Under the pieces are notes generated by a model. It saw only the letters and a list, made by a program, of their open reading frames with translations, did no database searches and was not told the origin of the DNA. Positions 26,853 through 44,742 of a DNA stretch of 52,969 bases are shown here, piece after piece; position 1 is the stretch's first letter, and every line of letters starts with the position of its first letter. A program made the translations under genes and the position numbers. Source of the DNA: a virus (taxonomy: Duplodnaviria; Heunggongvirae; Uroviricota; Caudoviricetes); IMG/VR virus record IMGVR_UViG_2718217885_000014, positions 1 to 52,969 of that record. One strand, 5' to 3'.

Positions 26853-27029
26853 TGTTCATTCCACGGACAAAAACAGAGAAAGGAAACGACAAAGGCCAAA
26901 AAGCCCGTTTTCAGCACCTGTCGTTTCCTTTCTTTTCAGGGGGTATTTTAAATAAAAACATTAAGTTACGACGAAGAAGAACGGAAACACCTTAAACCGG
27001 AAAATTTTCATAAATAGCGAAAACCCGCG

Positions 27030-27041
27030 AGGTCGCCGCCC
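27030..27041. other. cos: cos cohesive-end site (cosN 12-nt overhang; flanking 26941-27060 matches the lambda left end including cosB)
   Basis: Plus strand 26941-27041 is the reverse complement of the remembered lambda left-end sequence (GGGCGGCGACCTCGCGGGTTTTCGCTATTTATGAAAATTTTCCGGTTTAAGG...); AGGTCGCCGCCC at 27030-27041 is the complement of the 12-nt cohesive end. Confidence 0.85.
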
Positions 27042-27240
27042 CGTAACAGGCCGGATCGCCAGAAAGGACCCGAAAATGATAATAATTATCAATTAAATAA
27101 AAGTTATCTCAACCGACAAGTTCACCATGAAAGAGGACAAATAATGAGTTCGGTCTCAATGCATTAATTGATCTGCATCAAATTTAAGTAAAAACATCTT
27201 TGGACAATACAGAACACTGCAGTGAATATGGAAAAAGACA

Positions 27241-27453
27241 ATGTCATCGAAGAACAAAACCAGCAAAACAACAACCCGTAACATCCGTTTTCCCAATCAC
27301 ATGATTGAGCAGATCAATATCGCCCTTGAGCATAAAGGCTCCGGCAACTTTTCGGCATGGGTTATTGAAGCCTGTCGCCGGAGGCTGGCAGCAGACATAA
27401 AATGTGCCCGTCAGTTAACTGTAACAAAGAATGATACACCGTCTGCTCTGTGA
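27241..27453 (+). CDS. small cos-proximal hypothetical protein, possible ribbon-helix-helix DNA-binding fold
   Basis: 70-aa ORF; region NIRFPNHMIEQINIALEHKGSGNFSAWVIEACRRRL resembles RHH/CopG-type proteins; transcribed away from cos. Confidence 0.5.
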   Translation: MSSKNKTSKTTTRNIRFPNHMIEQINIALEHKGSGNFSAWVIEACRRRLAADIKCARQLTVTKNDTPSAL

Positions 27454-27564
27454 TAACTGTTCATATAACCATTTCTTTATATTGCTGAATTTACAAAAAG
27501 TCGCAGTTATTAGTCGTATTTATTCCGAATTGAAATCATCCGTCATATAAAATAAAAAAGAATA

Positions 27565-27572
27565 ACAATAAT
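27565..27572. repeat. 8-bp target-site duplication ACAATAAT (left copy) of IS66-family element
   Basis: ACAATAAT immediately outside the IS terminus; identical copy at 30277-30284. Confidence 0.8.
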
Positions 27573-27602: not shown

Positions 27603-29174
27603 TTACTGAGAGGTCAGATCAACTTTCCAGGGCAACAGATCGCGTACCCGGTTTGCCGGCCAGTCCTGGATATGCTCAATGACGTAACGCAGCCATTTTT
27701 CTGGTTCCACATTGTTCAGACGGCATGTGCCGATCAGCGAGTACAACACCGCCGCATGTTCGCCACCGCTGTCGGAACCCGCGAAGAGCCAGTTTTTCCG
27801 GCCTACGGCCACTCCCCGTAAGGCGTTCTCTGCGATGTTGTTGTCGATTTCCACCTGGCCATTACTGCAGTACACGTTCAGGCCATCCCACTGTTTCAGC
27901 AGGTATGCGAACGCTTTTGCCGTATCCGAGTGACGCGACAGTGTTTTCATCTGAGTCTGTATCCAGTCATACAGTGACTGCATCAGTGGCGCAGCTCTGG
28001 CTTTTCTTGCCGCCAGACGCTGTTCTGCTGTACATCCCCGGACTTCTGCCTCTATGGCATACAGTTCACCGATACGCTGCAGGGCTTCCGTGGTGATGTC
28101 GGTGGGCACTCTTGCATGCACATCGTGGATTTTTCTCCGGGCATGAGCCATACACGCGGCTTCCGTTATTCTGCCGGATTCGTATAACACCCGGTAACCA
28201 CCGTAAGCATCGGCCTGAAGCACACCGCTGTAACCGGCCAGATGATTCTGTGGATGGACGCCTTTCCGGTCCGGGCTGTACGCGAACCAGACCGCCGGAG
28301 GCATCTGTGAACCGGCGTTACGGTCATCACGGACGTAGACCCACAGCCGGGCAGTCCTTGTTTTACCACTGCCCGGCTCCTGGACCGGGACGGGGATATC
28401 ATCGGCATGGACTTTACCGGGCATCAGCACATACTGGCGCAGGACGTCATACAGCGGCTCCAGCAGTTCAGCAACGGCACCTGTCCAGCGCCCCAGCGTG
28501 GCGCGGCTCAGCTCCACGCCCTGGCGACGGTATATTTCTGACTGGCGGTATAACGGCAGATGGTCTGCATATTTCCCGGTGACAACATGGGCCAGAAGCC
28601 CCGCTCCGGCATAACTGCGTGCAATGGGTTTTGAAGGTACTGGTGCCTGCACGATATGGTCGCACCGGCAACAGGCCAGTTTCGGACGTTGTGCTTCGAT
28701 AACCTTAAAGGCGCTGCTGATAAGCTCCAGTTGCTCTGACACATCACATCCCAGAGAACTGAGTTCGCCACCACAGGCCGGGCAGCATTCCTCTTCCGGC
28801 CGGATAACCCGGGTTTCACGGGGAAGTGAGGTCGGTAACGGTTTACGGGCAGAAGACTGGCGCAGGGGGGATGGCAGTGCCGGGTCATATTGCTCACCCA
28901 GCGTTTCTGCCATTTCTTCCTGAAGTGCGCTGATTCGCTCCTGTGCTTCCTGTATCTGCCGTTCGGTTTTTGCACGAAGTTTTTCTGAGCTTTTACCGAA
29001 CTGCATACGCTGCAGTTTCGCAACCAGCGCCTTCAGCCGGTTGATTTCGGAAGCATAAGCCGCCACCCGCTGTGAGAGCAGGCGGTTGTATTCAGCCATC
29101 TGGCGGATGGTGTCCTGTTGTGTCTGCAACAGTGCCCGCAGGCGGGCATTCTCATGAGCAAGTGAGGTGTCCAT
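27603..29174 (-). CDS. IS66-family transposase TnpC
   Basis: 523 aa with N-terminal coiled coil, CxxC zinc-finger motifs (CPACGG, CCRCDH) and the conserved IS66 transposase core. Confidence 0.9.
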
Positions 29175-29193
29175 ATCCTCACTTTACATCGGG

Positions 29194-29541
29194 TTATATG
29201 CGGATTCCAGCGCGTTCCGTTCGTTTCGGGTGCTTCCAGTTGATGCCCTCAAGAAGCATGGACAACTGAGCCGGAGTAAGGTGAACCTTTCCATCGCGGG
29301 TGACCGGCCAGACGAAGCGGCCCCGCTCCAGGCGTTTGGTGAAGAGGCACAGTCCGTCGCTGTCAGCCCACAACACTTTTATCTGGTCACCCCGGCGTCC
29401 GCGGAAGATGAACAGATGCCCGGAGAACGGGTCATCCTTCAGGACGTTCTGAACTTTTGATGCCAGGCCGTTAAAACCATTTCGCATGTCGGTGATACCG
29501 GCAACCAGCCAGATACGTGAACCGGCAGGGAGAGATATCAT
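29194..29541 (-). CDS. IS66-family accessory protein TnpB
   Basis: 115 aa, MISLPAGSRIWLVAGITDMRNGFNGLASKVQ..., typical IS66 orf2 product. Confidence 0.9.
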   Translation of the reverse strand: MISLPAGSRIWLVAGITDMRNGFNGLASKVQNVLKDDPFSGHLFIFRGRRGDQIKVLWADSDGLCLFTKRLERGRFVWPVTRDGKVHLTPAQLSMLLEGINWKHPKRTERAGIRI

Positions 29542-30191
29542 CAGTGGCTGCTCCCTTTCATTTCGCGGATAAGTGTCTGTAATAACGCCGGTGTCAGTTC
29601 ACCTTTCAGCCTGAGAGTTCCGGCCGGCAGAACCAGCTCGCAGCACAGACTGTCTGGCAGTGTATTTATCTGTTCAGGTATCTGCACTGGTGCCGGGATT
29701 TTATTATCCGGCTCCGGAGTTAACGTCACGGGAAGTAGCGATGTTTCATGTTCGCCGGGCGGCTGCAGGCCGCCGTTACGCCAGAGATGCCGCCAGTTAA
29801 AGAGCAGGTTATCGTTGATTCCGTTCTCACGAGCTATTTGTGCGACACAGGCACCGGGTAAAAGAGTCCGCTGAACAAGTCTCCATTTAAACTCCGGTGA
29901 AAATCGGTTCCGGCGGGGTTTCTCTGCTTTCACAGGCTGAGTCACGGTCGGGGTTGAAGGATATCGCCCCGGGAAAAGAGCCCGGGCCAGTTGCCCGCAG
30001 GAATATTCACCGGAAAGGGGCCAGTCAGTGAATACCTGGTGAAATCGCCTCACCAGAGAAAAAATGGCGGTTTTGCTGACACCAGTCTGCGCAGAAATGC
30101 GCGGGTACGACAGTGACTCGTCAAATCTCAGCTGTAGCACACGCAGGATCAATTCCGGATTATCTGCCAATACCGCCTTTCGTGCATTCAT
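29541..30191 (-). CDS. IS66-family accessory protein TnpA (orf1)
   Basis: 216 aa; position and size typical of IS66 orf1; stop/start overlap with tnpB. Confidence 0.85.
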   Translation of the reverse strand: MNARKAVLADNPELILRVLQLRFDESLSYPRISAQTGVSKTAIFSLVRRFHQVFTDWPLSGEYSCGQLARALFPGRYPSTPTVTQPVKAEKPRRNRFSPEFKWRLVQRTLLPGACVAQIARENGINDNLLFNWRHLWRNGGLQPPGEHETSLLPVTLTPEPDNKIPAPVQIPEQINTLPDSLCCELVLPAGTLRLKGELTPALLQTLIREMKGSSH

Positions 30192-31661: not shown

Positions 31662-32191
31662 TGATCTATCCCCCAACAGGCTAATGCGCTTTCCTGGTCA
31701 CGACGAATAACCTGTCCATAGCAGTTATTTGAACGTATGCGGCAATCGCGCCCACCATCTTTTATCCACCAGCGAATCGCCTCGCATGCACCCTTACGAT
31801 CACCGGCATTCAGCCGCTTATAAAACGTCGACGGGAAACACTTACCGGGGCCAATGTTATAGGGACAAAATGACGCTATACCCGCTTTCTGTGGTTCGGT
31901 CAGTGGTACTTTAATATTGCGTTCCACCCATGCCAGCGCCTTATCACGTTCAATAGCGTTAACCTGGTCGCATTTTTCCTTCGACAGCTTCATTCCCGGT
32001 ATGACGGGCTTACCATCCACCATTGTGGCACCACGACAGATGGTCCATATACCGGAACCATCGCGGTATGCCGTAGTGTGGTTACCCTCTTTTTCATCCA
32101 GAAACTGGTCAAGTATTTGAGGAGCAGACGCGCCTGCAGCAATCAGCGCCAGAACGGCAGCCGACAGGCCGTATCTGATTTTTGCGTTCAT
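31658..32191 (-). CDS. R: phage lysozyme R (T4-lysozyme family), probable SAR endolysin
   Basis: 177 aa; weakly hydrophobic Gly/Ala-rich N-terminus ([19 protein letters not shown]) then E-D-T catalytic region ([20 protein letters not shown]); resembles K-12 prophage lysozymes RrrD/RrrQ from memory. Confidence 0.85.
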
Positions 32192-32254
32192 GGATATTTA
32201 TCAGGATTTATCGGTTTCTGCCCACGGACAGGTTTATCTGTTCCGGTCAGTGGC

Positions 32255-32605
32255 TTAAGGTTGTGATTCCGGAGGAGTCTTCAGAGAACCAGTAATTCTT
32301 CCTGGTAGCTCTCCTTTGTAGGTTATCCACACATTCTGCGCCTCTAAAATTACGGGGCGCTTTTCCGGCGACTGCTCATCCCCTTCACATAACCCGGCAG
32401 CAACATCCAGGAAGACCTGTCTGATGCGCCTTCTGGCTGCTGCTTCATAAAACTCCAGCGCGGCACCTTCAACACGGTCCAGCGAGATGTCCAGGTCAAA
32501 AATTTCACCGTCAAAGCGTTTTTTGTCCCGTAACGCTAAAGTTACCGTAACTTTATTCTCAAAATTGCGGATCCCTTTCACAATCAGTTCATAGTTTTGA
32601 GTCAT
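32255..32605 (-). CDS. hypothetical protein between holin and lysozyme (YdfR-like)
   Basis: 116-aa ORF occupying the position of ydfR in the K-12 Qin lysis cassette; function unknown. Confidence 0.6.
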   Translation of the reverse strand: MTQNYELIVKGIRNFENKVTVTLALRDKKRFDGEIFDLDISLDRVEGAALEFYEAAARRRIRQVFLDVAAGLCEGDEQSPEKRPVILEAQNVWITYKGELPGRITGSLKTPPESQP

Positions 32606-32609
32606 TGAA

Positions 32610-32825
32610 TTACTCTCCCCGTGCAGCCTTACGCTTGTCTTCTCTGATTTTGAAGTACAGATTTGTCAGATAAGTCAGGAAGCCCAGAACCAGACTCCCC
32701 AGTACACCAATCGCAGCCCACTGTGACGGACTGACCTGATCAAGCCACTGTAAAAACCAGTAGCCAGCACTGCCTGCGGAGGTGCCGTAGGCAATGCCCG
32801 TTGAAATTTTGTCCATGGATTTCAT
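32610..32825 (-). CDS. S: class II holin (phage 21 S-type pinholin) with dual-start motif
   Basis: 71 aa from [63 protein letters not shown], near-identical to phage 21 S; Met1-Lys-Ser-Met4 dual start at 32814-32825. Confidence 0.85.
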
Positions 32826-32936
32826 AACCCCCACCTCGCAGATGCGGGCGTTGTGTAATGGAAACAAAAAAGGCCACCAGCGGCCCGTAAAAACAACACC
32901 CAATCAAAGGCACCCGCAGATGCCTTTTGCGTGGTG

Positions 32937-33089
32937 TTATTCAGATTTGCGCAGTAAAGGCCGGAGCACGACCAGCACCATCACCACCAGCACACCATCT
33001 GCCAGTACCGACATCAGCCGTCCGGTAAAATCCACCACCACTACCAGAAACAGCAGGATGGCAGCCAGCACAAGGCGCGCACTTTTCAC
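32937..33089 (-). CDS. putative small two-transmembrane protein (not in ORF track)
   Basis: In-frame GTG at 33087-33089 overlapping the TGA stop of the upstream TerB-like gene (GTGA); encodes about 50 aa with two hydrophobic stretches (LVLAAILLFLVVVV and VLADGVLVVMVLVVL); internal ATG at 33012-33014 is an alternative start (25 aa). Confidence 0.3.
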   Translation of the reverse strand: MKSARLVLAAILLFLVVVVDFTGRLMSVLADGVLVVMVLVVLRPLLRKSE

Positions 33090-33511
33090 AGGTACTGCTC
33101 CAGTGGTAGCTGCAGCGCCTGAGCAATTTTCTTCAGTTGCGCTTCTTCATCCGGGCCAATGCCGTCCTGGTCAGCGATATCCAGACACAGGCACAGCACA
33201 TTAACTGCGTCATCAGTACCGGCAACATCAGCCAGCTGACGAAGGGCTTCAGCATTGGCAGAGCGCGGCGACGCTTCATAACGGGCGCGGATATTTGCAC
33301 TCATTTGTGCAATCTCACCGGAGAACGGCGCAAAGGCAGGAAGTGCTGCAATGGTTTTCTCCAGTACCGCGATTTCTTTCGCGTCACAGGTGTCGTCAGC
33401 GTATGCAATGGAATACGCACCCCAGACGGTCGCCTCCACTGCGTCGCGGTTCTCCATCTTCTTCACTTCGGTAATGGCCTTGCGAGTTTTCTTTTTGAAA
33501 ATACCAAACAT
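33086..33511 (-). CDS. TerB-like (tellurite-resistance TerB / DjlA N-domain fold) protein
   Basis: 141 aa with TerB-like pattern (acidic helices, LDIADQDGIGPDEEAQLKKIAQALQL); located between the late tRNA genes and the holin. Confidence 0.55.
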   Translation of the reverse strand: MFGIFKKKTRKAITEVKKMENRDAVEATVWGAYSIAYADDTCDAKEIAVLEKTIAALPAFAPFSGEIAQMSANIRARYEASPRSANAEALRQLADVAGTDDAVNVLCLCLDIADQDGIGPDEEAQLKKIAQALQLPLEQYL

Positions 33512-33685
33512 CGTGACTTTTCCTTTTAGTGGGTGAGCCTGCGCCCGGGGGTGACCAGCCCACAGAGAAAGTCACACTGACCATCCCGTAAGCTCACCCC
33601 TGAAAGGCTCTGTGGTTTTTGATATGCGCCGGGCGTGGCGCGGATACAAAAAAGGCCCGCCAAAGCGAGCCGGGAAAAATAAGTC

Positions 33686-33762
33686 TGGCGCGTTGTACTG
33701 GATTCGAACCAGTGACCGATTGCTTAGAAGGCAATTGCTCTGTCCGACTGAGCTAACAACGC
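33686..33762 (-). tRNA. tRNA-Arg (anticodon UCU)
   Basis: 77-nt cloverleaf folded by hand: acceptor GCGTTGT/ACAACGC, D-arm GCTC/GAGC, anticodon stem ATTGC/GCAAT with loop CTTCTAA, T-loop TTCGAAT, encoded CCA. Confidence 0.8.
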
Positions 33763-33775
33763 ATGATGCAGATAA

Positions 33776-33856
33776 TGGACCGCCATCGAGGACTCGAACC
33801 CCGCACCAACAACCCTGTTATCGTGTCGTCTGCTCTTCCTGATGAGCTAATGGCGG
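33776..33856 (-). tRNA. tRNA-like gene with atypical anticodon arm (anticodon not assignable; possibly degenerate)
   Basis: Acceptor CCGCCAT/ATGGCGG, D-arm GCTC/GAGC, T-arm CGGGG-TTCGAGT-CCTCG and CCA are canonical, but 27 nt lie between D and T arms and no standard 5-7-5 anticodon stem-loop could be folded by hand. Confidence 0.45.
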
Positions 33857-33863
33857 TATGTTA

Positions 33864-33939
33864 TGGTGGCCCTTGCTGGATTTGAACCAGCGACCTGGCG
33901 ATTATGAGTCGCTCGCTCTCACCACTGAGCTAAAGGGCC
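33864..33939 (-). tRNA. tRNA with CAU anticodon (Met, or Ile2 if lysidine-modified, as ileZ of phage 933W)
   Basis: 76-nt cloverleaf: acceptor GGCCCTT/AAGGGCC, D-arm GCTC-AGTGGTGA-GAGC, anticodon loop CTCATAA, T-loop TTCAAAT, CCA. Confidence 0.8.
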
Positions 33940-33979
33940 GGGCGCAGGATAATAACGGTACGTAACTAATTCTGCAATA

Positions 33980-35038
33980 TCATCCGTTCTGACTGACTAA
34001 ATCCTGAACTTCCTTGACCGTCTGCTCAAAACGCTCAGTCTCCAGCTCAACGCCAATTGCACGACGTCCCAGCGCCATCGCTGCTTTGACCGTCGAACCC
34101 GACCCCATGAAAAAATCTGCAACCAGATCTCCCGGACGACTGCTTGCGCTGATTATCTGCTGCAACATTTCTGCCGGTTTTTCGCACGGATGTTTCCCGG
34201 GATAGTACTGCACCGGTTTATGCATCCACACATCGGTGTACGGCACCTGCACAGTCACACCGAAATACCGCCGCAAATTTTTATATTCTCTCAGCAGTTC
34301 CGTATACTGCCGGTTCAGTTCACTGTATGTGCTGACCAGCTGGTGGTGTGGCTGCTCCAGTTCACCGCGCTGATGTTTTTCTGCTGCAACACGCGCAAAC
34401 AACGCCTGCAATTTGTTGTAATCAGCTTCGTTCGGTAACTGCCACTGACTGGTACCAAACCAGTGCGAAGCCATGTTTTTCTTTCCGGTGGCTTCCGCTA
34501 TCTGTTTTGACGTTATTCCCAGTTCGGCACGAGCATCCCTGAAATACGATATCAGCGGTGCCATTATGTGCTGTTTGAGTTCCCTTTCTTTTGCCGCATA
34601 GCCGTCACTTTTGCCGCGATATGGCCCCTGGTAATGTTCAGCAAACAGAACGCGCTCTGTGGCAGGAAAATATGCGCGCAGACTTTCTTTATTACACCCA
34701 TTCCAACGTCCAGACGGCTTCGCCCAGATGATATGGTTAAGCACGTTGAAACGTTCACGCATCATGATCTCAATATCAGATGCCAGGCGATGCCCACAGA
34801 ACAGGTAAAGGCTTCCGGCAGGTTTCAACACCCGCCAGAACTGGGCCAGACAGTGGTCCAGCCACTTAAGATAATCTTCGTCCCCTTTCCACTGATTGTC
34901 CCAACCGTTGGGTTTCACCTTGAAGTAAGGCGGATCGGTAACAATCAGGTCAATGGAATCATCAGGCAGGGACTGAATAAAATGCAGGCAATCAGCGTTG
35001 ATTAAATCAACACTGTTTATTTTTACAGTATTTTTCAT
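33980..35038 (-). CDS. DNA methyltransferase (N6-adenine/N4-cytosine family, beta-class), no adjacent endonuclease
   Basis: 352 aa; catalytic DPPY motif near N-terminus (LIVTDPPYF) and AdoMet-binding FxGxG near C-terminus (DFFMGSGST). Confidence 0.85.
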   Translation of the reverse strand: MKNTVKINSVDLINADCLHFIQSLPDDSIDLIVTDPPYFKVKPNGWDNQWKGDEDYLKWLDHCLAQFWRVLKPAGSLYLFCGHRLASDIEIMMRERFNVLNHIIWAKPSGRWNGCNKESLRAYFPATERVLFAEHYQGPYRGKSDGYAAKERELKQHIMAPLISYFRDARAELGITSKQIAEATGKKNMASHWFGTSQWQLPNEADYNKLQALFARVAAEKHQRGELEQPHHQLVSTYSELNRQYTELLREYKNLRRYFGVTVQVPYTDVWMHKPVQYYPGKHPCEKPAEMLQQIISASSRPGDLVADFFMGSGSTVKAAMALGRRAIGVELETERFEQTVKEVQDLVSQNG

Positions 35039-35188
35039 GGATCAGTAAGCGTAACTCTGGTAGGCTCACTCTGCTTTTGCGCTAAAGCAGTGGGCCGTGG
35101 TTCGCTTGTGACCAGTAAGCATGAGCGAATGGCTGGCAGGTGCTACCAACACCCACCAGCCGCCCATTTTCACAGCAGGAAACCGCCA

Positions 35189-35392
35189 TTACTGGCAGCG
35201 TCTGAATTTATTCCCGTACCCGCCGTTATCCTTCGCCAGACCCGCCAGAACTAACTGAGTCAGTATTAACTGGCACCGGACTTCGCTTACTCCGGTAGTT
35301 CTCGTCATCATGCGTGGCGTTACCCACTTGTCAGCAGGTAAGAAATGAAGGACTGCGGCGGCGGTTTCTGTCATATCTTGCTGTTTTAGCAT
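35189..35392 (-). CDS. hypothetical small protein
   Basis: 67 aa from ATG at 35390-35392 (MLKQQDMTETAAAVLHFL...); track ORF extends 28 codons further upstream, probably non-coding. Confidence 0.4.
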   Translation of the reverse strand: MLKQQDMTETAAAVLHFLPADKWVTPRMMTRTTGVSEVRCQLILTQLVLAGLAKDNGGYGNKFRRCQ

Positions 35393-35512
35393 GTTTTTTC
35401 CCTTCTGGTTAACATGACATACCAATAACTCTTGTCTAAAAAGCCAGCAAGATAAAAAGTCAGTATTCACGACCACCAGCGTGTTTACTGTACTGCACCA
35501 AGTTTACAGGTA

Positions 35513-35540
35513 CAAAAAAACCGCTCAGCGGCGGGTTTAA
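35513..35540 (-). terminator. candidate rho-independent terminator (possible tR' equivalent)
   Basis: Minus-strand GC-rich hairpin (CCGC-TGA-GCGG core, extendable) followed by seven U (plus-strand A-run 35514-35520). Confidence 0.4.
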
Positions 35541-35588
35541 GTTGTGTGGCGAAGTAACCACTCTTAACAGCATATTTGATTTTTTACG

Positions 35589-35617
35589 ATTGTAAACGGT
35601 TGATTATTCATCTCCAA
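35589..35617 (-). promoter_or_regulatory. candidate sigma-70 promoter (possible late promoter PR' equivalent)
   Basis: Minus strand: -35 TTGGAG (35612-35617), 17-nt spacer, -10 TACAAT (35589-35594); about 60 nt upstream of the hairpin/U-run at 35513-35540. Confidence 0.3.
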
Positions 35618-35661
35618 TAAAAATAATTGTGTAGGTATGCCCTTAACAATGGATAAGAAAC

Positions 35662-36108
35662 ATGAATAAAATGACTGTATTATTACTTAGCGCAACTATC
35701 ATTTCAGGTTGTACTTCTTCCGTACCATTGATAAAGAAAACTCAATCAGGAAAACCTGAGGGGGTTTATCAAAATACGACAAAAGATAAAGTCAAAGATG
35801 CCCTTGTGAATTACTGCAATAGTAGAGGGTTGATAATTTACAACGCGGATAACAGCAGTGTTATATGTGGTAAAGAACTGGAAGGCGGGTCTGCTGTTTT
35901 TGGACAAATGTTAATCGGCAATGCCTATTCAACAACCCCGGTATCAAAAGTCAGATTTACTATCGCTCAAGTTAATAACGATACAAAAGTGTGGGCCGAT
36001 ATGTGGATGGAAACTCAAATGGCAATGGGGCAAGTACAACAAATGGCTATAACAGACAACGCAAGCAAAAACACTATCCAACAACGTCTTGATGAATTAA
36101 AACCTTAA
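35662..36108 (+). CDS. lipoprotein of unknown function (moron)
   Basis: 148 aa with lipobox (LLLSATIISGC); on the strand opposite to all flanking phage genes; AT-rich upstream region, hairpin downstream. Confidence 0.75.
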   Translation: MNKMTVLLLSATIISGCTSSVPLIKKTQSGKPEGVYQNTTKDKVKDALVNYCNSRGLIIYNADNSSVICGKELEGGSAVFGQMLIGNAYSTTPVSKVRFTIAQVNNDTKVWADMWMETQMAMGQVQQMAITDNASKNTIQQRLDELKP

Positions 36109-36128
36109 GTAAATTAATTAAATAAAAT

Positions 36129-36151
36129 GGGGAGAAATAAATCGACTCCCC
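36129..36151. terminator. hairpin between lipoprotein gene and Q (likely terminator, mainly for minus-strand transcripts)
   Basis: GGGGAG-N11-CTCCCC stem-loop; on the minus strand it is followed by an A/U-rich tract (AUUUUAUUUAAUU). Confidence 0.4.
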
Positions 36152-36193
36152 ACACATTAAACTGATTCAATTACCCCCTCAATAAGAGGTCTT

Positions 36194-36574
36194 CTAACGA
36201 TCCATCTCTAGCTCAATTTCTAACATCATTAACATGCCATCAACTACACCTTCAGCCTTTTGCAATAAACGCCCAACCCAGCAATCAGAACGCCCATGTT
36301 TACGGGCAAGCGCCATAAACGTCATACCACCTACATAATAATCCACTAATAAATCGTGCAAATCGCTGTTGTTCTTTTTCAGGCGAGCCATGCACCCACA
36401 AATGATCATCGCGTCATCGTCACAACATTGCGGGCGGGATTTTACTTTTGAAGGGATTAGTCCTTTAAATCCTGCAGCAATAGACGACCAGGTGACATCC
36501 TCGTGATTATTTGCCACCCATGCCCCCCAACGTTCAAGAACCATTTGAATATCACGCATCAACTTTCTCCACAA
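36194..36574 (-). CDS. late-gene antiterminator Q (QuuD/phage 82 Q-like)
   Basis: 126 aa; from [76 protein letters not shown] it matches K-12 QuuD from memory. Confidence 0.85.
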
Positions 36575-36576
36575 AA

Positions 36577-37566
36577 TCAGGCCAGAACGCCAATTGCCAG
36601 CGCACGATCGATAAAACGAAATATCAGCTCCAGCTGGGAGCCATACTTCTCTTCAAATGCCACGGTATCCGCATGCAGCTCGTCGTGATGCTTTCTGCAC
36701 AAAGGCAACACAAAAAGGTCATGCGCTTTTGTTCCCATTCCACCCTGACCGTGACCTATCAGGTGGTGGGGATCATCAGCAGGCTTTCCACAACATGCAC
36801 ACGGCTGTGTCTTAACCCAGCGCGTGTACTTTTCATTAACCCAGCGGCGACGTTTGGGGCGTAACATAAAAGACTCCGGCGACTCCGGATCCACTTTCAG
36901 CGCCAGCACCTTTTTCGCTTTATCCTGGATGATGCTGGTGGCAGGAACCGAAGGCACAAGGTCACACTCCCGGGTGACAGACGGCACAACAGGCGTCGGT
37001 AATCTCAGTGCCTTACGGGCTGCACTTTCCGGTAAGGCATCCGCCAGGTCATTACGAGCCAGCCACCAGCATAGTTCCGGCATTGTCACAACGTGACTGT
37101 CATCAAAACCGAGATCCCGACGCACGACAGATAACACCCACCGGGCACAGTTATCCGTTGCCATTGATTCCAGCCGTTCCGTGAACTGATCGCGCAGCTG
37201 GTTATCGCAGTGCCAGCACAGACGGATTGCGCCCGGAGCGTGTCGCATTGTGGTCATATTCTCGCTGTGCCAGTCGGAATGAGGCCACTGGCAGCCTTTT
37301 TCACGAAGTAACCAGCGTTCAAGACATTCCACGCCACCAGCACGACGGATTACCGCCTCATTGCGGAACATAGCCCGAACGGCAGGATCATCCGCCAGCG
37401 GTTGTGATGCCGCCGGAACGGCACCACTGGCAAAAGATGAATAACGTTCCGGCTCAGGCTCCAGCAGGACACGCCCCTGCATAAACAGGGGCATCAGTTC
37501 TGAACCGGGTCTGAACAATACGATCCCCATACGTGGGGCAATTTCAGGGGTCAGTAGTGCTCTCAA
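36577..37566 (-). CDS. DUF968-domain protein (YdfU-like)
   Basis: 329 aa with C-terminal Cys/His-rich region ([43 protein letters not shown]); nin-region position. Confidence 0.7.
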
Positions 37567-37575
37567 CGTAGAACC

Positions 37576-38091
37576 TCACAGCACAATCTGTTTCAGTTTC
37601 TGTACCGCTTTCCCCATATCCGCCATAGCATCAACAAACTCATCAAATTTACGACTTGCCATTCCATACGCCTGGAGGATTTCCAGTTTCAGAGGATCCA
37701 GTTGCTTTTTAATTTCCGCACGATCATTAAATTTCTTCTCTGCTTCTTCCGCAGCCCTGATCAGCTCCTCAGCATGCCTGCGTAATTCATCCGGAGTAAC
37801 GGTCTTTTTAATCACAACGGGTTCCTCTGTTTTTACTGGTATTTCACTATTTACTGCCTGATGTCCAAATTTAGGATGATGTAACGTTGTAGTTCTTCCA
37901 TCATTCACAACGACCAGAAGTCCACTGTCGCGGATAATGCCAATGAGTATCTCCTTATCCCTTTTATTCAGCAGACTGTACGCCTGCACTTTCTGTGATA
38001 TCTGGGTCAGTGTTGCGCCTTCCGGCATTCGTTCAACAAAACGTTTAACCCTGGATAAAACTGGCTGCAGATGGGGTGGTGTAATTCTCAT
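37576..38091 (-). CDS. hypothetical protein (N-terminal winged-helix-like, C-terminal coiled coil)
   Basis: 171-aa ORF, tightly packed in the operon; no recognisable family by eye. Confidence 0.55.
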   Translation of the reverse strand: MRITPPHLQPVLSRVKRFVERMPEGATLTQISQKVQAYSLLNKRDKEILIGIIRDSGLLVVVNDGRTTTLHHPKFGHQAVNSEIPVKTEEPVVIKKTVTPDELRRHAEELIRAAEEAEKKFNDRAEIKKQLDPLKLEILQAYGMASRKFDEFVDAMADMGKAVQKLKQIVL

Positions 38092-38106
38092 GCTCCACGC
38101 CTCCCA

Positions 38107-38922
38107 TCAGTGAACGGTATCGAGCAGCTTTAACAGCTCAGGGAATCGGGATTCGAAGAAATGCGGCTGCGTCTCGCGCGGATTTGCAGGACTGGTGATG
38201 TTCTTGCCGAACATGCAGCCTTTCGCCGTCAGCGACCAGAATTTTTTGATGTTGTTAATCGCGGTACGGCTGTATCGTTCGCGTTGTTCAACGATCCCCA
38301 GCTTCGCCATCTGGTGATATGCCTGATTAGCCGTCAGGCGGATACCATACTGCTTCAGCAGTGCACTCAGCGACAGCGTAGGGCGGCTTGAACCATCTGG
38401 CGCATCAGCAGGTGCATCAATGGCATAGATCGGCATAAGTTCAGGAAGACCTGCTACCTTTGATAATTTCTGGTATGCACCAAGTTTCGAGGAGTTTGAC
38501 AGATTTAGAGTCTTTGCTGCTGATTCAAGCAGAATGACCCCGGATTTAATTTTGTCGGATGTGGTTTCTTCTGGTGATGAATTATGAAGCGCATCAAAAG
38601 TACGTATCACTTTTAAGCTGAATGCCGGGCTGATCCACATTGCATATGCATAGACCAGCTCTTTACAGACATACGTCCCACCATTGCGCCCCTGAATGGT
38701 GATGACAGGAATACTACGGGAATCTCCCGTAGTTTCTTCTTCCAGTAATTCCACAAGAGCCTTCGTTTCAGGACGACGCATAAACTCGTGAACTTCCAGC
38801 GAACGGGAGGAGCGATTCTCACCAGCGGCAAGAAGAGCAGCTTTCTGAAGGTCGTTAAGACAGTAGTTAGATTCAAAGTACTGGCGCACAGAAACGCCAT
38901 CAATTACAAGCAACTGATTCAT
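38107..38922 (-). CDS. KilA-N domain protein
   Basis: 271 aa from ATG at 38920-38922 with GGAGA Shine-Dalgarno; N-terminus MNQLLVIDGVSVRQYFESNYCLNDL resembles KilA-N domain; track ORF starts 32 codons upstream without a Shine-Dalgarno. Confidence 0.65.
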   Translation of the reverse strand: MNQLLVIDGVSVRQYFESNYCLNDLQKAALLAAGENRSSRSLEVHEFMRRPETKALVELLEEETTGDSRSIPVITIQGRNGGTYVCKELVYAYAMWISPAFSLKVIRTFDALHNSSPEETTSDKIKSGVILLESAAKTLNLSNSSKLGAYQKLSKVAGLPELMPIYAIDAPADAPDGSSRPTLSLSALLKQYGIRLTANQAYHQMAKLGIVEQRERYSRTAINNIKKFWSLTAKGCMFGKNITSPANPRETQPHFFESRFPELLKLLDTVH

Positions 38923-39202
38923 TGGTTTCTCCACAAATTTCGGGACTGCACTCCCTTTTCGTTGATGCAAGATGAACTTACTGCGATTTTTAATAGTTAT
39001 CAAGGATACACTGTTCATAAATACAGTATCTTTAACGAGGTAATACCCAAATTTAGGGTGTTGCTCAATTCCGTTACCGAGTTGCTAATTTGCAACTCGC
39101 TTTTTCGTACTTACTGATAGTGATCTCGACCTTACCTTCCGGGATAACCGGTCCCCACTCCACCAGCATTCTTTTCACCTGTCTGTCGTCTTCCCACACC
39201 CC

Positions 39203-40539
39203 ATAAGCGCTAACTTAAGGGTTGAACCATCTGAAGAATGCGACGCCTCGGTGCCTCGTTAAGACGATGCCTCGCGTTCTTCAATTGCGTTTTGTAGGCT
39301 GTCAGGGATACTGTCCCACGAATGGCCACCTGTAAGCTCCAGATGACCATTTTTGTTATTCTCCACAACGAGTTAGTTCTTCTTTTCGGATCCGGCACTT
39401 CTGGGGGGGAAATCCAGCGATGGCTGGATTATGTCGTCAATTAAAAATGCGGCGAGTAGATTAGCAAATATCCACGCTTTCGCGAGTTCAGGTTCCTTTG
39501 CACGCAAAGCATCCAGGTGCAGCAAACTTTTGAGCCGCTTAAAAGCCAGTTCAATTTGCCATCGCAGACGGTAACAATCAGCCACTTGCTCTGCTGAATA
39601 TTCATCTTCCGGTAATGATGTTAGCAATAGCACATGGCCCGCTGCTTCCAGCGTTTCCGCCTGAACTACTCGTCCTTTTCGACGATTCTCGCTGAGCAGT
39701 CGGGTTTTACTGATTAATGCTTTTTCGGGAGGAAGTGATACGGCAATGAGACGTGCCGGAAAGGGAGCTCCGGCTTTTTTATTACCTGAATTGCCTATCA
39801 TTACAGTGGTTTCACCGTTCTTACCGCAATCCAGCCCGCGCAGAAAACCCATCATGTCAAAGCGCATTCCTTCTGCAGTTAACCAGCGCAATCCTCGCCA
39901 GTGAACCCGGACGATATAATCAGCTTCTCCAAAAGCAAGTGAGCGGATACATTCGGGACGCGAACCGAATCCCCGGTCAGCAATGCGTATCTCGTCTGCC
40001 GTTTGCGCAAATCGGTCCAGCCGTTCAGCGTCTCTGCTGTCGGTTAGCTCAAAATCAGTGAACTGACAGGTATGAGGATCATATCCCATATGTAGTCGCC
40101 ATTCAGCGCTGCCGCCCCCGGGCGCACTGATTGCTGTTCCATCGACAAGACGCAATCTCTTTCCGCTTGTACAACCCGTAACTGCGGCGCGTACAGCAAG
40201 TGTTTGTGCGGCAAGTATGCCAAACCAGTCGGCGGCATTCCGCAGCCGCTTCAGGAGAGCCACGTCAGATAATGTTGCAACGTCATGGAGCTGAGCCCAT
40301 GCAGTGACTTCACGTAATGACATCCCCCCGGGGCCGTAAGCCAGCCCCAGACGTAGCAGAGTTGCAGCATCACGAATTTCGCGGCGGCGGGTTAGAGCCC
40401 CGGCATTACGTGCCGAAGTATCCAGTTCTTCGGGCTTACCAATATGGGCCAGAATTGCTGACCAGTTATCGTGAGAGTAATTCATCGGCACGTTAAATCA
40501 TATCAGGCGTAATACCACAACCCTTAAGTTAGCGCTTAT
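39203..40539 (-). mobile_element. IS4-family insertion sequence (about 1.34 kb)
   Basis: About 22-bp terminal inverted repeats (ATAAGCGCTAACTTAAGGGTTG at 39203-39224, CAACCCTTAAGTTAGCGCTTAT at 40518-40539); flanked by 11-bp direct repeat TCCCACACCCC (39192-39202 and 40541-40551); one transposase ORF inside. Confidence 0.85.
39373..40485 (-). CDS. IS4-family DDE transposase
   Basis: About 370 aa; C-terminal YRLRWQIELAFKRLKS signature typical of IS4-family transposases. Confidence 0.8.
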   Translation of the reverse strand: MNYSHDNWSAILAHIGKPEELDTSARNAGALTRRREIRDAATLLRLGLAYGPGGMSLREVTAWAQLHDVATLSDVALLKRLRNAADWFGILAAQTLAVRAAVTGCTSGKRLRLVDGTAISAPGGGSAEWRLHMGYDPHTCQFTDFELTDSRDAERLDRFAQTADEIRIADRGFGSRPECIRSLAFGEADYIVRVHWRGLRWLTAEGMRFDMMGFLRGLDCGKNGETTVMIGNSGNKKAGAPFPARLIAVSLPPEKALISKTRLLSENRRKGRVVQAETLEAAGHVLLLTSLPEDEYSAEQVADCYRLRWQIELAFKRLKSLLHLDALRAKEPELAKAWIFANLLAAFLIDDIIQPSLDFPPRSAGSEKKN

Positions 40540-40814
40540 GTCCCACACCCCCGCGTGGGTCAGGGCGTCAAACAGCGCCTTGTTATAGTTGTCCAGATCG
40601 CGGATCCGGTTATCCGGAGGAAACAACACGATCTCCACTGAAGCAGGTGCCGACGTTGGTTTCGGCAGACGACGTAACTGCTCAACTATTGCTGCGCACG
40701 CCGCGCTCTGGAATTTTCGCCCCGCCGCGCTTATCAGGCTCTTACCAGCAAACGCCCCTTTGTTGGGGTGTCGCCAGTACGTGTTCACGCTGGGCGGGAA
40801 AGGCAGTATTAGCT

Positions 40815-41141
40815 TCATACTTTCAGGCCCCTCTCATGTAACCAGTGGGTTGCACGCAGCCTGGCGTTTTCCTCACCGGCAAGCAGTGAGCGGATAATCC
40901 CGACCGCCTCGCTGTCGTCGTCCTTCACCGCGGTATGAAGCGTTATCCCCCGGGCCACACCACGCTTTATCGTGATGACGCCTTTTTTCTCCAGTGCGCG
41001 AAGATGCTCCACCGCTGCATTCACTGAACGGTATCCCAGCATGGTTGCCACCTCCTGATTGGTTGGCGGGAAGCCACGTTCTTTCTGGTAAGAAATCAGC
41101 ATATCCAGCACCTGCTGCTGGCATTGAGTTAACGTCGTCAT
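40815..41141 (-). CDS. LexA DNA-binding-domain-only protein (winged helix, no S24 peptidase domain)
   Basis: 108 aa from ATG at 41139-41141 (MTTLTQCQQQVLDMLISYQKERGFPPTNQEVATMLGYRSVNAAVEHLRALEKKGVITIKRGVARGITL), resembling the LexA N-terminal domain; no C-terminal protease domain. Confidence 0.6.
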   Translation of the reverse strand: MTTLTQCQQQVLDMLISYQKERGFPPTNQEVATMLGYRSVNAAVEHLRALEKKGVITIKRGVARGITLHTAVKDDDSEAVGIIRSLLAGEENARLRATHWLHERGLKV

Positions 41142-41629
41142 TAAGCCCCCACGTAATTGCCTGACAGATACCACTCTTCACCCGATGCAGCGCGCTTGCT
41201 GCTTTTCCGTAAGCACCGCTCACGACGCGCCAGAAAATTGTTTCGTTCTGGCTTGGAGTGGCTTTCACGGAATGCCGCCATCCACACCGTTGCAGCACGA
41301 CGAAATAAGCCCCTGGACTCCAGTTCTTCCGCCTGGCGGGTCAGGCACAAAATCACCCGTGGATCGTTAGTGCCGACATAGAAATTGCGCACAGGTCTGG
41401 TTTCACGAACTGGTTGTGGTTCCGGCTCCTGCGCTCTCTCAGTCAGGCGTGGGAAATGTCTGCGTGTATCTCCTTCACAACGGTGAGCCACACGCCCACT
41501 CTGACGTAACTTGCTTGCTGACTGCAGAACGCGCTGTCGTGAGTAACCAGCAAAAGCATCCGCAATGTCTCCTGAAGTACACCCCGGATGGGCTTCAATG
41601 AATTTCTGAACTTCATTCAAAAGACTCAT
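41141..41629 (-). CDS. PerC-family-like regulator with N-terminal winged-helix region
   Basis: 162 aa; central motif ELESRGLFRRAATVWMAAF resembles the PerC/Pch signature from memory; occupies the slot after the replication initiator where lambda has P. Confidence 0.5.
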   Translation of the reverse strand: MSLLNEVQKFIEAHPGCTSGDIADAFAGYSRQRVLQSASKLRQSGRVAHRCEGDTRRHFPRLTERAQEPEPQPVRETRPVRNFYVGTNDPRVILCLTRQAEELESRGLFRRAATVWMAAFRESHSKPERNNFLARRERCLRKSSKRAASGEEWYLSGNYVGA

Positions 41630-42450
41630 AATCCCCCCCTGAATCCTGCCGGGATCTGGCTGTAGTCCACGTTGTCGTAACTGGCTTTGAAGTACGGGTC
41701 CTCGCGTCTGGCTGCAGATACCGCAGGAACTTCCCAGGATTCTTCGAAATGACGATCCGGACCAAAGAACGTGACAGCCTGTTTCACAAATTGTGTGCCG
41801 CTGTTACCCATCGCAGATACCCAGCCCGCGTAGCGTTTCACACCTTCCAGCATGGTTTCGGGGTTTACCCCCTCATTCAAACGGGCTTTCCAGGCTTTGA
41901 AGGCTGCAGATTTTGAATTGCCACCAGCACGTTTGGGATAGGCCAGCCATGCCTGCTCAAACTCCGGAGAGTATTCCGGTCGGTTTGAACGAACTCGCAC
42001 AGACTCATCAGCAGATGCACCAACAGCTATTGGTTCATTGACTGGTTCTTTGACTGGTTCAAAAGAGTGACTGGTTCTGGGTGAATCTCCTGCACTACCC
42101 CCTGGTGCAACTCCTGCACTACCTGGTGAATTTGCTGCACCAGATAGTGAATTATTTGCACTACCCCCTAGTGAATCTCCTGCACCATCAAGATGAAGGA
42201 GATAGATATTACTTGAGTTACCTTTTTCACCTTTCCGGGTGACTTTTTTTACCAGCCCAGACTCACAAAGGGCCGCAATATGATTCATCACAGAACGTTT
42301 GCTAATCTCGCACTGGTCAGCAATATGCTGGTAGCTGGGCCAGCACTCCCCCTGATCGCTGGCATTATCAGCCAGCTTGATCAGAACCAGTTTTCGCAAT
42401 GGATTACCCACTCGAATTTTCATCGCTTTAACCATCAGCTCCATACTCAT
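41626..42450 (-). CDS. replication initiation protein (lambda O-like, N-terminal HTH)
   Basis: 274 aa; N-terminal HTH domain (CWPSYQHIADQCEISKRSVMNHIAALCESGLVKK); low-complexity Gly/Ser/Ala linker encoded by DNA iterons; position after cro/cII-like genes. Confidence 0.75.
   Translation of the reverse strand: MSMELMVKAMKIRVGNPLRKLVLIKLADNASDQGECWPSYQHIADQCEISKRSVMNHIAALCESGLVKKVTRKGEKGNSSNIYLLHLDGAGDSLGGSANNSLSGAANSPGSAGVAPGGSAGDSPRTSHSFEPVKEPVNEPIAVGASADESVRVRSNRPEYSPEFEQAWLAYPKRAGGNSKSAAFKAWKARLNEGVNPETMLEGVKRYAGWVSAMGNSGTQFVKQAVTFFGPDRHFEESWEVPAVSAARREDPYFKASYDNVDYSQIPAGFRGGL
42078..42186. repeat. iteron array (five degenerate about 20-bp direct repeats) inside the replication initiator gene; probable origin of replication
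   Basis: Repeats TGGGTGAATCTCCTGCACTACCCCC, TGGTGCAACTCCTGCACTACC, TGGTGAATTTGCTGCACC, AGTGAATTATTTGCACTACCCCC, TAGTGAATCTCCTGCACC; three further TGACTGGTTC repeats at 42038-42079; AT-rich tract at 42187-42230. Confidence 0.6.
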
Positions 42451-42671
42451 GCTGCACCTCCGAGATGCTTCATGTTTTTTCCGGAGCGAAAGGCTATAAG
42501 CGGCATACTGACGCGGTAATTACGGCCCAGCGGTTCACAAATCACCTTCTGACATTCACGGTCAACCAGGCTAACACGTAGAACATGCCCTGCTGGCGTG
42601 GTGTACCACTGACCGGGGAGAGGACAACGGAAAGTCTGATTGGTAAATCGTTTGAAAATATTCCGGATCAT
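42447..42671 (-). CDS. hypothetical small protein
   Basis: 74-aa ORF whose stop overlaps the start of the replication gene by 4 nt. Confidence 0.45.
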   Translation of the reverse strand: MIRNIFKRFTNQTFRCPLPGQWYTTPAGHVLRVSLVDRECQKVICEPLGRNYRVSMPLIAFRSGKNMKHLGGAA

Positions 42672-43831
42672 TTACGCCCCCTTACCTCTGAAGAGTTCAG
42701 CGACGAATGAATAAGACGGGCAAGAAATGCCGCATCGTTAATTCGGTCATACAGACTTACAGCCAGCGGTGATTCAGCTTTTTCCAGCATGGGATAAAGC
42801 TGCTGCAACCAGACCTGATGAATTGATGAAATGTAGGAATAGAGTACGCTGGCGTTATGTGCAACGTCGCTCGGTACAGCGGGCTTTGAAAGCTGTTTCT
42901 CCATCTGGTTAAAGGCATTGATGTATGCCTCCTTGAACTGGGCTGCACGTTTGCCAGTGAAGCCCATTGCCAAGAACGCGAAGCCGTCGCGGGTGATGTG
43001 GTAGCAAGGAAGTTTGCGAGTACCGCCGTTGGGCTGGTGTACCCAAATTGATGTCTCCGCAAAATTGCGGGCACAAAACTCTGGAGAACAATCCAAAATG
43101 CGGATCTTTTTCAGAACATCGTCATGACGTTTAGAGAAGAAGTCAGCAACAGCCAAAGAAGATGTAACAGCCTGACCATCAACGATGGCAATTTCAGGTT
43201 GAGAGAGGGTTGGGAGAGTAGTCATGGTGACAGCCCCGGTAGTCAGTTTTTCAGAAAACTCACCACATGGGACGCCAATCACAGAGGTGGTGAGACGTAC
43301 AGGGTTGGCGTTACCGGAGACTACCGAACCCGGCCCGACCGAAGTCGGCCCTGTACGCCCCACCATAATTTGGGCGTAGCAATGCTCATGACACGAAAAA
43401 ACCGCATGAGCGCGGTTATGCTCAGTAATCAATTTCAGGACGCCAATCCCGGCACCCGTTTTATAAGGTGCCTGAACAGTGTAACGTCCCGGAATGGCAG
43501 AATCAATGTGCTGGTGGTCCTTCACACTCAACAAAATCACGCCTGAATTTCCACAAAGGACTAAAGCACTCATGCGGGTAGTCTTTGCGAAGATAGATAA
43601 CGCGCTGTGTATCTGGTTCCCAACGAATAACATGGACATAAAGCCCTCTTCCGTCACGAAACCAGCGGTTAAGTTCCTGCACAACTCGCCCCCCACAGTC
43701 AGGTAAAGTTCTCTGTGGTTACTTACAGCCAGGTGATTTGGTAATCTGCATTCATGCCGTAACAACAGGAGTTCAGCGACGCTGACCACCAGCTGTTGCG
43801 ACAAACGGTTATTTGCCGTTAAACTGTTCAT
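42668..43831 (-). CDS. Rha-family phage regulatory protein with about 200-aa N-terminal extension (possible alternative start at 43225)
   Basis: 387-aa ORF; residues from about 203 (MTTLPTLSQPEIAIVDGQAVTSSLAVADFFSKRHDDVLKKIRILDC) resemble the Phage_pRha domain; start ATG overlaps the stop of the upstream gene, supporting the long form; ATG at 43223-43225 would give 185 aa. Confidence 0.6.
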   Translation of the reverse strand: MNSLTANNRLSQQLVVSVAELLLLRHECRLPNHLAVSNHRELYLTVGGELCRNLTAGFVTEEGFMSMLFVGNQIHSALSIFAKTTRMSALVLCGNSGVILLSVKDHQHIDSAIPGRYTVQAPYKTGAGIGVLKLITEHNRAHAVFSCHEHCYAQIMVGRTGPTSVGPGSVVSGNANPVRLTTSVIGVPCGEFSEKLTTGAVTMTTLPTLSQPEIAIVDGQAVTSSLAVADFFSKRHDDVLKKIRILDCSPEFCARNFAETSIWVHQPNGGTRKLPCYHITRDGFAFLAMGFTGKRAAQFKEAYINAFNQMEKQLSKPAVPSDVAHNASVLYSYISSIHQVWLQQLYPMLEKAESPLAVSLYDRINDAAFLARLIHSSLNSSEVRGRK

Positions 43832-44379
43832 GCGTTAGTTTCTCCACAGACACAAAACGCCACGACGCCCGGAGCTGCACACTCGCGGGCGTCACTCTTT
43901 TCTGGAGCGCAAAAGATTTTGTAGACCAGTGCTGCATGCTCCTGGAGCTTCGAAATTGACAGATACAACTCATCATTAATTGCTGTCTGCTCGTGTGGCT
44001 CCACTACCCCATCTTCGATTGCCGAACGAATCTGCTTTGAGTAACTCCCGATCTGTTCGATGACTTCCAGCAGGCGCTGGTTTATATCGGCGTTCTCTAC
44101 TTCCTCAATTTCAGGAAGCGATACGAACACCCCACCAGCAGACTGTGCGACAGCATCCGCAATGTAGTGAGTGCCAGCTGCGCGCTGTAAAACCATTGCC
44201 CATCCCAGCGGGAAAATCTGATCGCCATCGGCACGAAGGCGGTTAAATAATGCGTTCTCTGTTACATCCAGCCAGTCAGCAGCTTCAGCGTAACCACCCG
44301 GCAACGCCGCGATAGTTTTTCTGACAGCTTTCACGTACCACTCAGGCTGTTTTTCTACTTTCCAGTGATGCTTACCCAC
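43828..44379 (-). CDS. hypothetical early protein in the cII position (YdaT-like, tentative)
   Basis: Proposed GTG start at 44377-44379 with GAGGAG Shine-Dalgarno 6 nt upstream; track ORF extends to 44490 overlapping cro; family assignment is a guess from position. Confidence 0.5.
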   Translation of the reverse strand: MGKHHWKVEKQPEWYVKAVRKTIAALPGGYAEAADWLDVTENALFNRLRADGDQIFPLGWAMVLQRAAGTHYIADAVAQSAGGVFVSLPEIEEVENADINQRLLEVIEQIGSYSKQIRSAIEDGVVEPHEQTAINDELYLSISKLQEHAALVYKIFCAPEKSDARECAAPGVVAFCVCGETNA

Positions 44380-44407
44380 GGTTAACTCCTCGTTTCTGTG
44401 GTTACGT

Positions 44408-44671: not shown

Positions 44672-44698
44672 ATCTTTCTCCTCTGAAATCCAGAGGGG

Positions 44699-44741
44699 AT
44701 AATGCTACTTAAAGTAGCGAATTGCAACTACTTAAAATAGA
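44699..44741. promoter_or_regulatory. OR operator/promoter region (PR for cro, putative PRM for cI)
   Basis: Pseudo-palindrome GCTACTTAAAGTAGC (44704-44718) and related CTACTTAAAATAG (44728-44740); minus-strand PR: -35 TTGCAA (44722-44727), 17-nt spacer, -10 CATTAT (44699-44704); plus-strand TAAAAT (44733-44738) 5 nt before the cI ATG suggests a leaderless cI transcript. Confidence 0.6.
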
Positions 44742-44742
44742 A

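Follow-up and report, generated by a model that had tools for sequence, protein, structure and literature searches.

The window analysed here, the 52,969 nucleotides (nt) of a virus record of the Caudoviricetes (IMGVR_UViG_2718217885_000014, positions 1 to 52,969), carries at positions 33980..35038, on the minus strand and from an ATG start, a gene for a DNA methyltransferase of 352 amino acids (aa). The gene represents a new allele in a family that is known, abundant and characterised biochemically, that of M.EcoGII, a prophage enzyme of E. coli O104:H4 which methylates adenine in any context (PMC5778455). We consider it probable that it encodes a late-expressed hypermethylase devoid of a recognition motif, which would shield packaged phage DNA from restriction. 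A first-pass annotation, made from the sequence alone, had described the open reading frame (ORF) and its DPPY and FxGxG motifs correctly, but had overlooked the 87% identity to M.EcoGII; the gene is no enigmatic orphan. The gene has the motif architecture of the family and lies behind a terminator, no nuclease gene accompanies it, and the arrangement is conserved across Enterobacterales.

The window protein is identical to M.EcoGII at 303 of 349 residues (87%), without meaningful gaps, and to the enzyme of phage 1720a-02 at 305 of 352 (87%); the M.EcoGII sequence is the one given in Supplementary Table S1 by the authors of SUPREM (PMC11551740), a machine-read PDF with a few obvious character-recognition slips. 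Its sole Pfam match is PF01555 (N6_N4_Mtase, E = 2.7e-44, aa 29-341), within which the motifs follow the beta-class order, with an N-terminal DPPY (aa 35-38), a central target recognition domain (TRD, approximately aa 160-237) and a C-terminal FxGxG, here F-M-G-S-G (aa 310-314). PHROGs and PADLOC label it a DNA or type II methyltransferase (PADLOC model MTase_II PDLC03265, E = 2e-155), and its sequence matches in the PDB are beta-class enzymes such as M.RsrI, CcrM and M.MboIIA, which cover only the two halves of the catalytic core. The scores against the NCBIfam equivalog models of CcrM and YhdJ (PRK11524) were 70.4 and 114.5, below their respective cut-offs of 830 and 292. On the basis of sequence comparison, Pfam, PHROGs and PADLOC, the protein was annotated as an M.EcoGII-family beta-class N6-adenine DNA methyltransferase and, because of the 87% identity, a fold other than that of this family is very unlikely.

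The similarity to M.EcoGII is full-length and includes the TRD, for which AlphaFold predicts, in this family, a four-helix bundle with a helix-turn-helix and a long charged linker (PMC11551740). Within the published boundaries of the domain (aa 160-237), the window protein is 83% identical to M.EcoGII (65/78), 87% to Anc291, a reconstructed ancestor, and 70% to SUPREM (Anc284). M.EcoGII is non-specific on DNA. The ancestral enzymes act on both DNA and RNA, their lack of site specificity having been shown only for RNA, and no site-specific relative comes closer to the M.EcoGII cluster than 27% identity (PMC11551740). Given its identity to M.EcoGII and the ancestors, and the separation of the cluster from site-specific enzymes at 27% identity or less, the window protein is, as judged from its sequence, well inside the experimentally sampled non-specific clade. 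From its 87% identity to a tested enzyme we infer that it likewise lacks sequence specificity. It also shares with the family its location in a prophage and its orphan status.

The first-pass annotation had placed the gene in the late operon, between Q and the tRNA genes, and both points are supported. The Q antiterminator gene is located at 36194..36574 (PF06530, E = 2e-51) and two tRNA genes at 33864..33939 and 33686..33762, all on the same strand as the methyltransferase gene. Between the latter and Q, and again on this strand, a terminator is preceded by a promoter-like site. The candidate tR' intrinsic terminator (GCCGCTGAGCGGT followed by T7) lies at 35513..35532, its stem-loop at 35532..35520 being followed by the T-run, and the candidate late promoter PR' (TTTACA, 16 nt, TATGCT) at 35569..35596, approximately 45 nt from the terminator. 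In phage 1720a-02, the segment spanning the -10 region and the terminator is conserved and comes directly after the Q stop codon. This organisation is a candidate for the PR'/tR' arrangement of lambdoid late operons, in which the terminator alone is well supported and the exact promoter is a candidate. The PR'-tR' transcript was also considered as the small RNA StxS and rejected, as StxS is 258 nt long and belongs to another Q/PR' type. Genes behind tR' are generally off in lysogeny and switched on after Q antitermination (PMC7547250). As the methyltransferase gene is downstream of the candidate PR' and tR', its expression is expected to be off in the lysogen and to require Q during lytic growth. 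Its position fits what has been reported for homologues, as M.EcoGI and M.EcoGII are silent in lysogens and toxic on over-expression (PMC5778455), M.EcoMV is silent in the lysogen by reverse transcription PCR (PMC4659465) and homologues in O111 strains were reported to be silent in lysogens as well (bioRxiv 10.1101/173336).

The proposed mechanism is as follows. In the lysogen, PR' transcription would halt at tR', upstream of the gene, so that the enzyme would not be made and the toxicity of genome-wide methylation would be avoided. Upon induction, Q-modified RNA polymerase would read past tR' into a small ORF, the methyltransferase gene, the tRNA genes and the lysis genes, and the methyltransferase, as the second ORF of this Q-dependent late transcript, would be made alongside the lysis and morphogenesis proteins. 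The enzyme would then heavily methylate the adenines of replicating phage DNA, whatever the sequence, before packaging, and the progeny genome would enter the next host pre-resistant to many adenine-sensitive type I, II and III systems. A cognate nuclease would not be expected for such an enzyme, which would be an orphan by design. Protection of phage DNA from restriction is the role proposed in the literature for the M.EcoGII family (PMC5778455) and, among the three roles put forward in the first-pass annotation, the one that fits the evidence; the other two, a change of gene expression in the lysogen and a remnant of a degraded restriction-modification (R-M) system, are disfavoured for the reasons given below.

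Several points weigh against a motif-less, protective enzyme. The anti-restriction role of the M.EcoGII family is itself only inferred in the literature (PMC5778455), and a literature search turned up no measurement of virion DNA methylation, nor of plating efficiency, with versus without M.EcoGII-like genes. The TRD differs from that of M.EcoGII at 13 of 78 positions, and specificity is not readable from sequence. The PR' hexamers match the consensus weakly (9/12), and phage 1720a-02 does not share the -35 region. Lastly, methyl-adenine-dependent type IV nucleases would target DNA heavily modified with N6-methyladenine (PMC11037411), and any benefit would therefore depend on the host.

The lack of a nearby restriction endonuclease, also noted in the first-pass annotation, was found in the window and extends to related loci. 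Apart from an extra 711 bp, the window and a prophage of E. coli 09-00049 agree at 99.7-100% identity, and the RefSeq annotation of this prophage, in which the methyltransferase is WP_052934280.1 ('DNA-methyltransferase'), includes no such gene; none was found either by Pfam and PADLOC scans of the unassigned neighbours in the window. For comparison, 80 related loci (56-88% identity, one genome per species) were fetched from Escherichia, Salmonella, Enterobacter, Citrobacter, Klebsiella, Kluyvera, Mixta, Erwinia, Photorhabdus, Xenorhabdus, Proteus, Morganella and Gilliamella. The 64 loci in which the gene is full-length and flanked by 1.5 kb or more on either side were used, and all neighbours within 2.5 kb were clustered. 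The recurrent upstream neighbours are three mutually unrelated Q families (PF06530, PF06323 and PF03589), DUF968 and DUF1367, and those downstream are holins, lysozymes and spanins (Rz). No nuclease was found among the recurrent neighbours within this distance, and the adjacent cognate endonuclease of a type II R-M system is missing both from the window and from these recurrent neighbours. The conserved feature is the slot itself, the first cargo of the late operon behind any type of Q, which speaks for a function in the lytic cycle rather than for an R-M cassette in decay. The gene immediately downstream of the methyltransferase in 10 Xenorhabdus loci codes for a protein of about 270 aa with a Tad2-like domain (Thoeris anti-defence 2, PF11195; E = 3e-16; e.g. 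positions 7202-8017 of locus L066), and this association points to the beginning of the late operon as a slot for counter-defence genes. As tRNA genes are found 3' of the methyltransferase gene in only 2 of the 64 loci, the tRNA neighbourhood is an addition of the Escherichia lineage, and a functional link between methyltransferase and tRNAs was rejected.

Four other explanations were weighed. If the substrate were RNA (rRNA, the phage tRNAs or late mRNA), the enzyme would tune translation during lytic growth rather than protect DNA. RNA is a substrate of M.EcoGII in vitro (PMC5778455), another, unlike methyltransferase of Stx phages modifies 16S rRNA together with a small winged-helix partner (PMC10810198), and a winged-helix protein gene lies just upstream, and tRNA genes just downstream, of the window methyltransferase gene. 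We nevertheless regard this explanation as unlikely. M.EcoGII is approximately 100-fold slower on RNA than on DNA (0.12 versus 11.12 in the same units; PMC11551740), and the window protein has Q179, as does M.EcoGII, and not the E179 that is linked to high RNA activity (PMC11551740). The 16S rRNA enzyme, M.EcoPA8orf6770P, is an MT-A70-family subunit encoded beside PNB-2 near the other end of the phage genome (Gong et al., PMC10810198); identity of the window protein, which matches PF01555 only, with this system was rejected, and the tRNA genes follow the methyltransferase gene too rarely among the related loci to speak for RNA as the substrate. Very unlikely, in our estimation, is a sequence-specific orphan resembling Dam or CcrM, expressed in the lysogen and epigenetically reprogramming host or prophage genes. 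Orphan methyltransferases with regulatory roles are generally known (reviewed in PMC10073500), and the protein belongs to the beta class, as do CcrM and YhdJ, and partially matches their NCBIfam models. However, the scores fall far below the cut-offs and the protein is 87% identical to a non-specific enzyme. The altered expression of host genes suggested in the first-pass annotation is further disfavoured by the location of the gene behind tR' in a Q-dependent transcript and by its close homologues, for which neither a methylation signal nor a transcript is reported in lysogens.

Less probable still is an inert passenger, i.e. a decaying moron without current function. The prophage contains IS66 and IS4-family insertions and may be defective, but the ORF is intact with all catalytic motifs present, and the family, whose amino-acid identity across genera is 56-88%, is clearly under purifying selection and comes with a co-varying leader. 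The least probable of these explanations is that the gene is the surviving methyltransferase, or 'antitoxin', half of a degraded type II R-M system. PADLOC and REBASE-style models do class the protein as a type II methyltransferase, and DUF968, located 1.5 kb upstream, has a marginal HNH-like match (26.9 against a cut-off of 26.6). DUF968 was rejected as an overlooked partner nuclease, because Q and tR' separate it from the methyltransferase gene, its place being in the early nin region, and because no more than about 27 of the 64 loci have it alongside that gene. Neither a flanking nuclease nor a nuclease pseudogene was found in the window, the related loci have no recurrent nuclease neighbour, and the gene keeps its place after Q, at the start of the late operon, irrespective of the Q type, which is unlike the inheritance of an R-M cassette. 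The late-expressed protective hypermethylase therefore remains the reading that we prefer.

The methyltransferase gene is preceded by a 5' leader of 150 nt (35039..35188, minus strand) with a structured core at 35071..35166, and this RNA is the sole element of the locus that we could not find described. Its fold is more stable than those of shuffled sequences (z = -2.95) and comprises four helices, P1 (TGGGC/GCCCA), P2 (GGCTGGTGGGTG/CACCTGCCAGCC), P3 (TTCGCTCATG/CACAAGCGAA) and P4 (CTGCTTT/AAAGCAG). The leader is conserved from Escherichia to Proteus with visibly compensatory changes; in Xenorhabdus and Photorhabdus it is shorter and retains only the long hairpin. RNAalifold alone recovered P1 and P2, and P3 and P4 were added by eye and then tested by counting pairs. 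In a MAFFT alignment of 20 sequences, the four-helix model has 11 pairs with double-sided changes, compared to 5.0 +/- 1.5 after column shuffling (0 of 500 shuffles reached 11) and 2-5 in slid controls. In a covariance-model alignment of 43 sequences, which is itself fitted to the model, the corresponding numbers are 23, 8.1 +/- 1.5 and 3-6. The covariance model matches once per locus and always abuts the methyltransferase ATG, including in loci without the small ORF, and gave no match elsewhere in 1 Mb. Rfam searches for a matching family returned only noise (with E limits of 1 for 2.8 kb and 10 for 221 nt). A Shine-Dalgarno sequence is absent before the methyltransferase ATG in every lineage compared.

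Helix P2 contains an exact Chi octamer at 35153-35160. Chi is found in P2 of most Enterobacteriaceae but not in that of Proteus, where the stem is maintained by compensatory changes. The window as a whole contains 15 exact Chi octamers (GCTGGTGG) at 31766-49629, compared to 1.8 expected from shuffles. They are confined to an 18-kb stretch that runs from the lysis genes to the early region, the 31 kb of structural genes having none, and 12 of the 15 are on the minus strand. This is the orientation in which Chi would be active towards RecBCD that enters at the cos end past the lysis genes.

The ORF between tR' and the leader, the first after the terminator, codes for a stand-alone winged-helix protein of 67 aa (35189..35392, minus strand; phrog_331), as indicated by AlphaFold. 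It has no Pfam family and is named 'TrmB family transcriptional regulator' in some homologues. By tblastn, it was found 86-189 nt upstream of the methyltransferase gene in 46 of the 64 loci, and two further loci have diverged copies; in those that lack it, unrelated genes occupy the space. The AlphaFold model, computed with the aid of database homologues, has a predicted local distance difference test score of 86 and shows a winged helix of topology H-H-H-b-b. Its best full-length structural matches are Z-alpha domains (1qbj, template modelling score 0.81-0.84, root-mean-square deviation 1.3-1.4 A), although the winged-helix domains of TrmB and IclR match it about as well and its sequence identity to Z-alpha is 16%. 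The Z-alpha domain of ADAR1 contacts Z-DNA through Asn and Tyr in helix 3 and through Pro-Pro-x-Trp in the wing. These signatures are absent from the 67-aa protein, in which helix 3 is RCQLILTQLVLAGL and the wing is GGYGNKFRRCQ. As unrelated genes take its place in some loci and M.EcoGII is active alone, the 67-aa protein is not required for catalysis.

We tentatively propose, with rather less than even confidence, that M.EcoGII-family genes form an undescribed three-part unit, consisting of the winged-helix protein, a co-varying leader of about 100 nt abutting a start codon without Shine-Dalgarno sequence, and the methyltransferase. The leader would serve as a dedicated post-transcriptional brake or timer of the toxic hypermethylase, possibly together with the winged-helix protein or with the methyltransferase itself as an RNA-binding protein. 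If true, this would be a new class of cis-regulatory RNA, found only in front of M.EcoGII-family genes. On this hypothesis, the leader and possibly the small protein are candidates for the post-transcriptional control of a dangerous enzyme and, since M.EcoGII is widely used for chromatin footprinting and RNA methylation, they are candidates for the native control of a common tool.

The solitary methyltransferase as such matters little, as it is one more copy of a family that is present in about half of the complete E. coli genomes and whose biochemistry is known. Murray et al. described M.EcoGII as part of a family with very many members in E. coli prophages, with a near homologue in phage 1720a-02 (PMC5778455). 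Of 5426 complete E. coli genomes, 2594 contain relatives with at least 80% nucleotide identity over at least 80% of the gene, the highest number in one genome being 8 copies, and most Stx phages carry such a relative at the corresponding position. The allele of the window is rare, with at least 99% nucleotide identity in only 6 of these genomes, compared to 2583 with relatives at 80-90%. The 3-kb segment from Q to the tRNA genes matches 356 phage records, mostly of Stx-converting phages. Methylome profiling of the lysogen would probably show nothing, and profiling of the cloned enzyme would probably reveal no motif but methylated adenines in any context; the checks suggested in the first-pass annotation therefore need to be reworked, with induced phage and virion DNA as the material.

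The window is a lambdoid prophage without stx genes, integrated at the E. coli tRNA-Thr gene thrW adjoining proA. The order 3' of tR' is the 67-aa ORF, the 150-nt leader, the methyltransferase gene, the tRNA genes, a TerB-family gene (33086-33511, minus strand) and a DUF3927 gene (32937-33089, minus strand), followed by holin, DUF1327, lysozyme and Rz genes. ARAGORN finds two tRNA genes, one with a CAT anticodon (33864..33939, minus strand; Met according to ARAGORN, tRNA-Ile according to RefSeq) and tRNA-Arg(TCT) (33686..33762, minus strand; ARAGORN and RefSeq), whereas RefSeq lists three in the near-identical record, the third being a degenerate-looking tRNA-like gene ('tRNA-OTHER', approximately 33776-33856, minus strand). 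A terminator-like hairpin lies 3' of the cluster (33671..33654, minus strand). Between Q and the PR'/tR' block, an opposite-strand gene (35662..36108, plus strand; phrog_3152) is inserted that is absent from phage 1720a-02. It codes for a lipoprotein-like protein of 148 aa with a signal peptide and Cys, had no match in Pfam and PADLOC scans, and is likely a moron expressed in the lysogen.

Mobile elements are present inside the prophage, which may therefore be defective. An insertion sequence of the IS66 type (tnpA/B/C, 27603-30191) is inserted after the small terminase gene, and the IS4-family element IS421 lies in the nin region (39373-40485). The extra 711 bp that are absent from the 09-00049 prophage are at 26862-27572 and contain a 70-aa ORF (27241-27453). 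Adjoining the cI-like repressor gene, at 45499-46198 on the plus strand, are two small overlapping hypothetical ORFs, a position typical for a superinfection-exclusion or defence moron; one of them has a weak PADLOC match to LmuB (E = 2.8e-4) that is likely to be noise. Just past the tail-fibre genes, at the far end of the prophage (approximately 1084-3700), the annotation of the near-identical record shows the genes for the omptin protease ompT and an alpha/beta hydrolase.

Compared to known systems, the window gene is closest to M.EcoGII (GenBank EGT69837.1, from a prophage of E. coli O104:H4 C227-11, with the paralogue M.EcoGI), with which it shares the beta-class order, the prophage location and the orphan status. 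The stretches described as the dimer interface of M.EcoGII are almost unchanged in the window protein. The two proteins differ at 13% of their residues, the window protein is 3 residues longer at the C-terminus (352 versus 349 aa), and its gene sits in an stx-less prophage at thrW. The sequence-specific beta-class orphans CcrM and YhdJ have PF01555 and the motif order in common with the window protein, but their TRDs are unrelated to its own, and they are chromosomal and expressed in growing cells. The promiscuous alpha-class phage adenine methyltransferases (Drozdz et al., in PMC5778455) are likewise phage-encoded, show little or no specificity and are presumed to act against restriction; they belong to an unrelated family with the reversed motif order, FxGxG first and DPPY last, and the likeness is functional only. 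With regard to gene order, Stx-converting and related lambdoid phages (1720a-02, phiP27, cdtI, Stx2a and Stx2c phages) share with the window the succession of Q, a short terminated leader, a small ORF, the methyltransferase gene and tRNA genes. In phage 1720a-02, stx2A lies just downstream of the methyltransferase gene, whereas the window has the TerB-family and DUF3927 genes downstream of the tRNA genes. The prophage of the window thus looks like an stx-less relative of the Stx phages that carries other cargo in the corresponding region.

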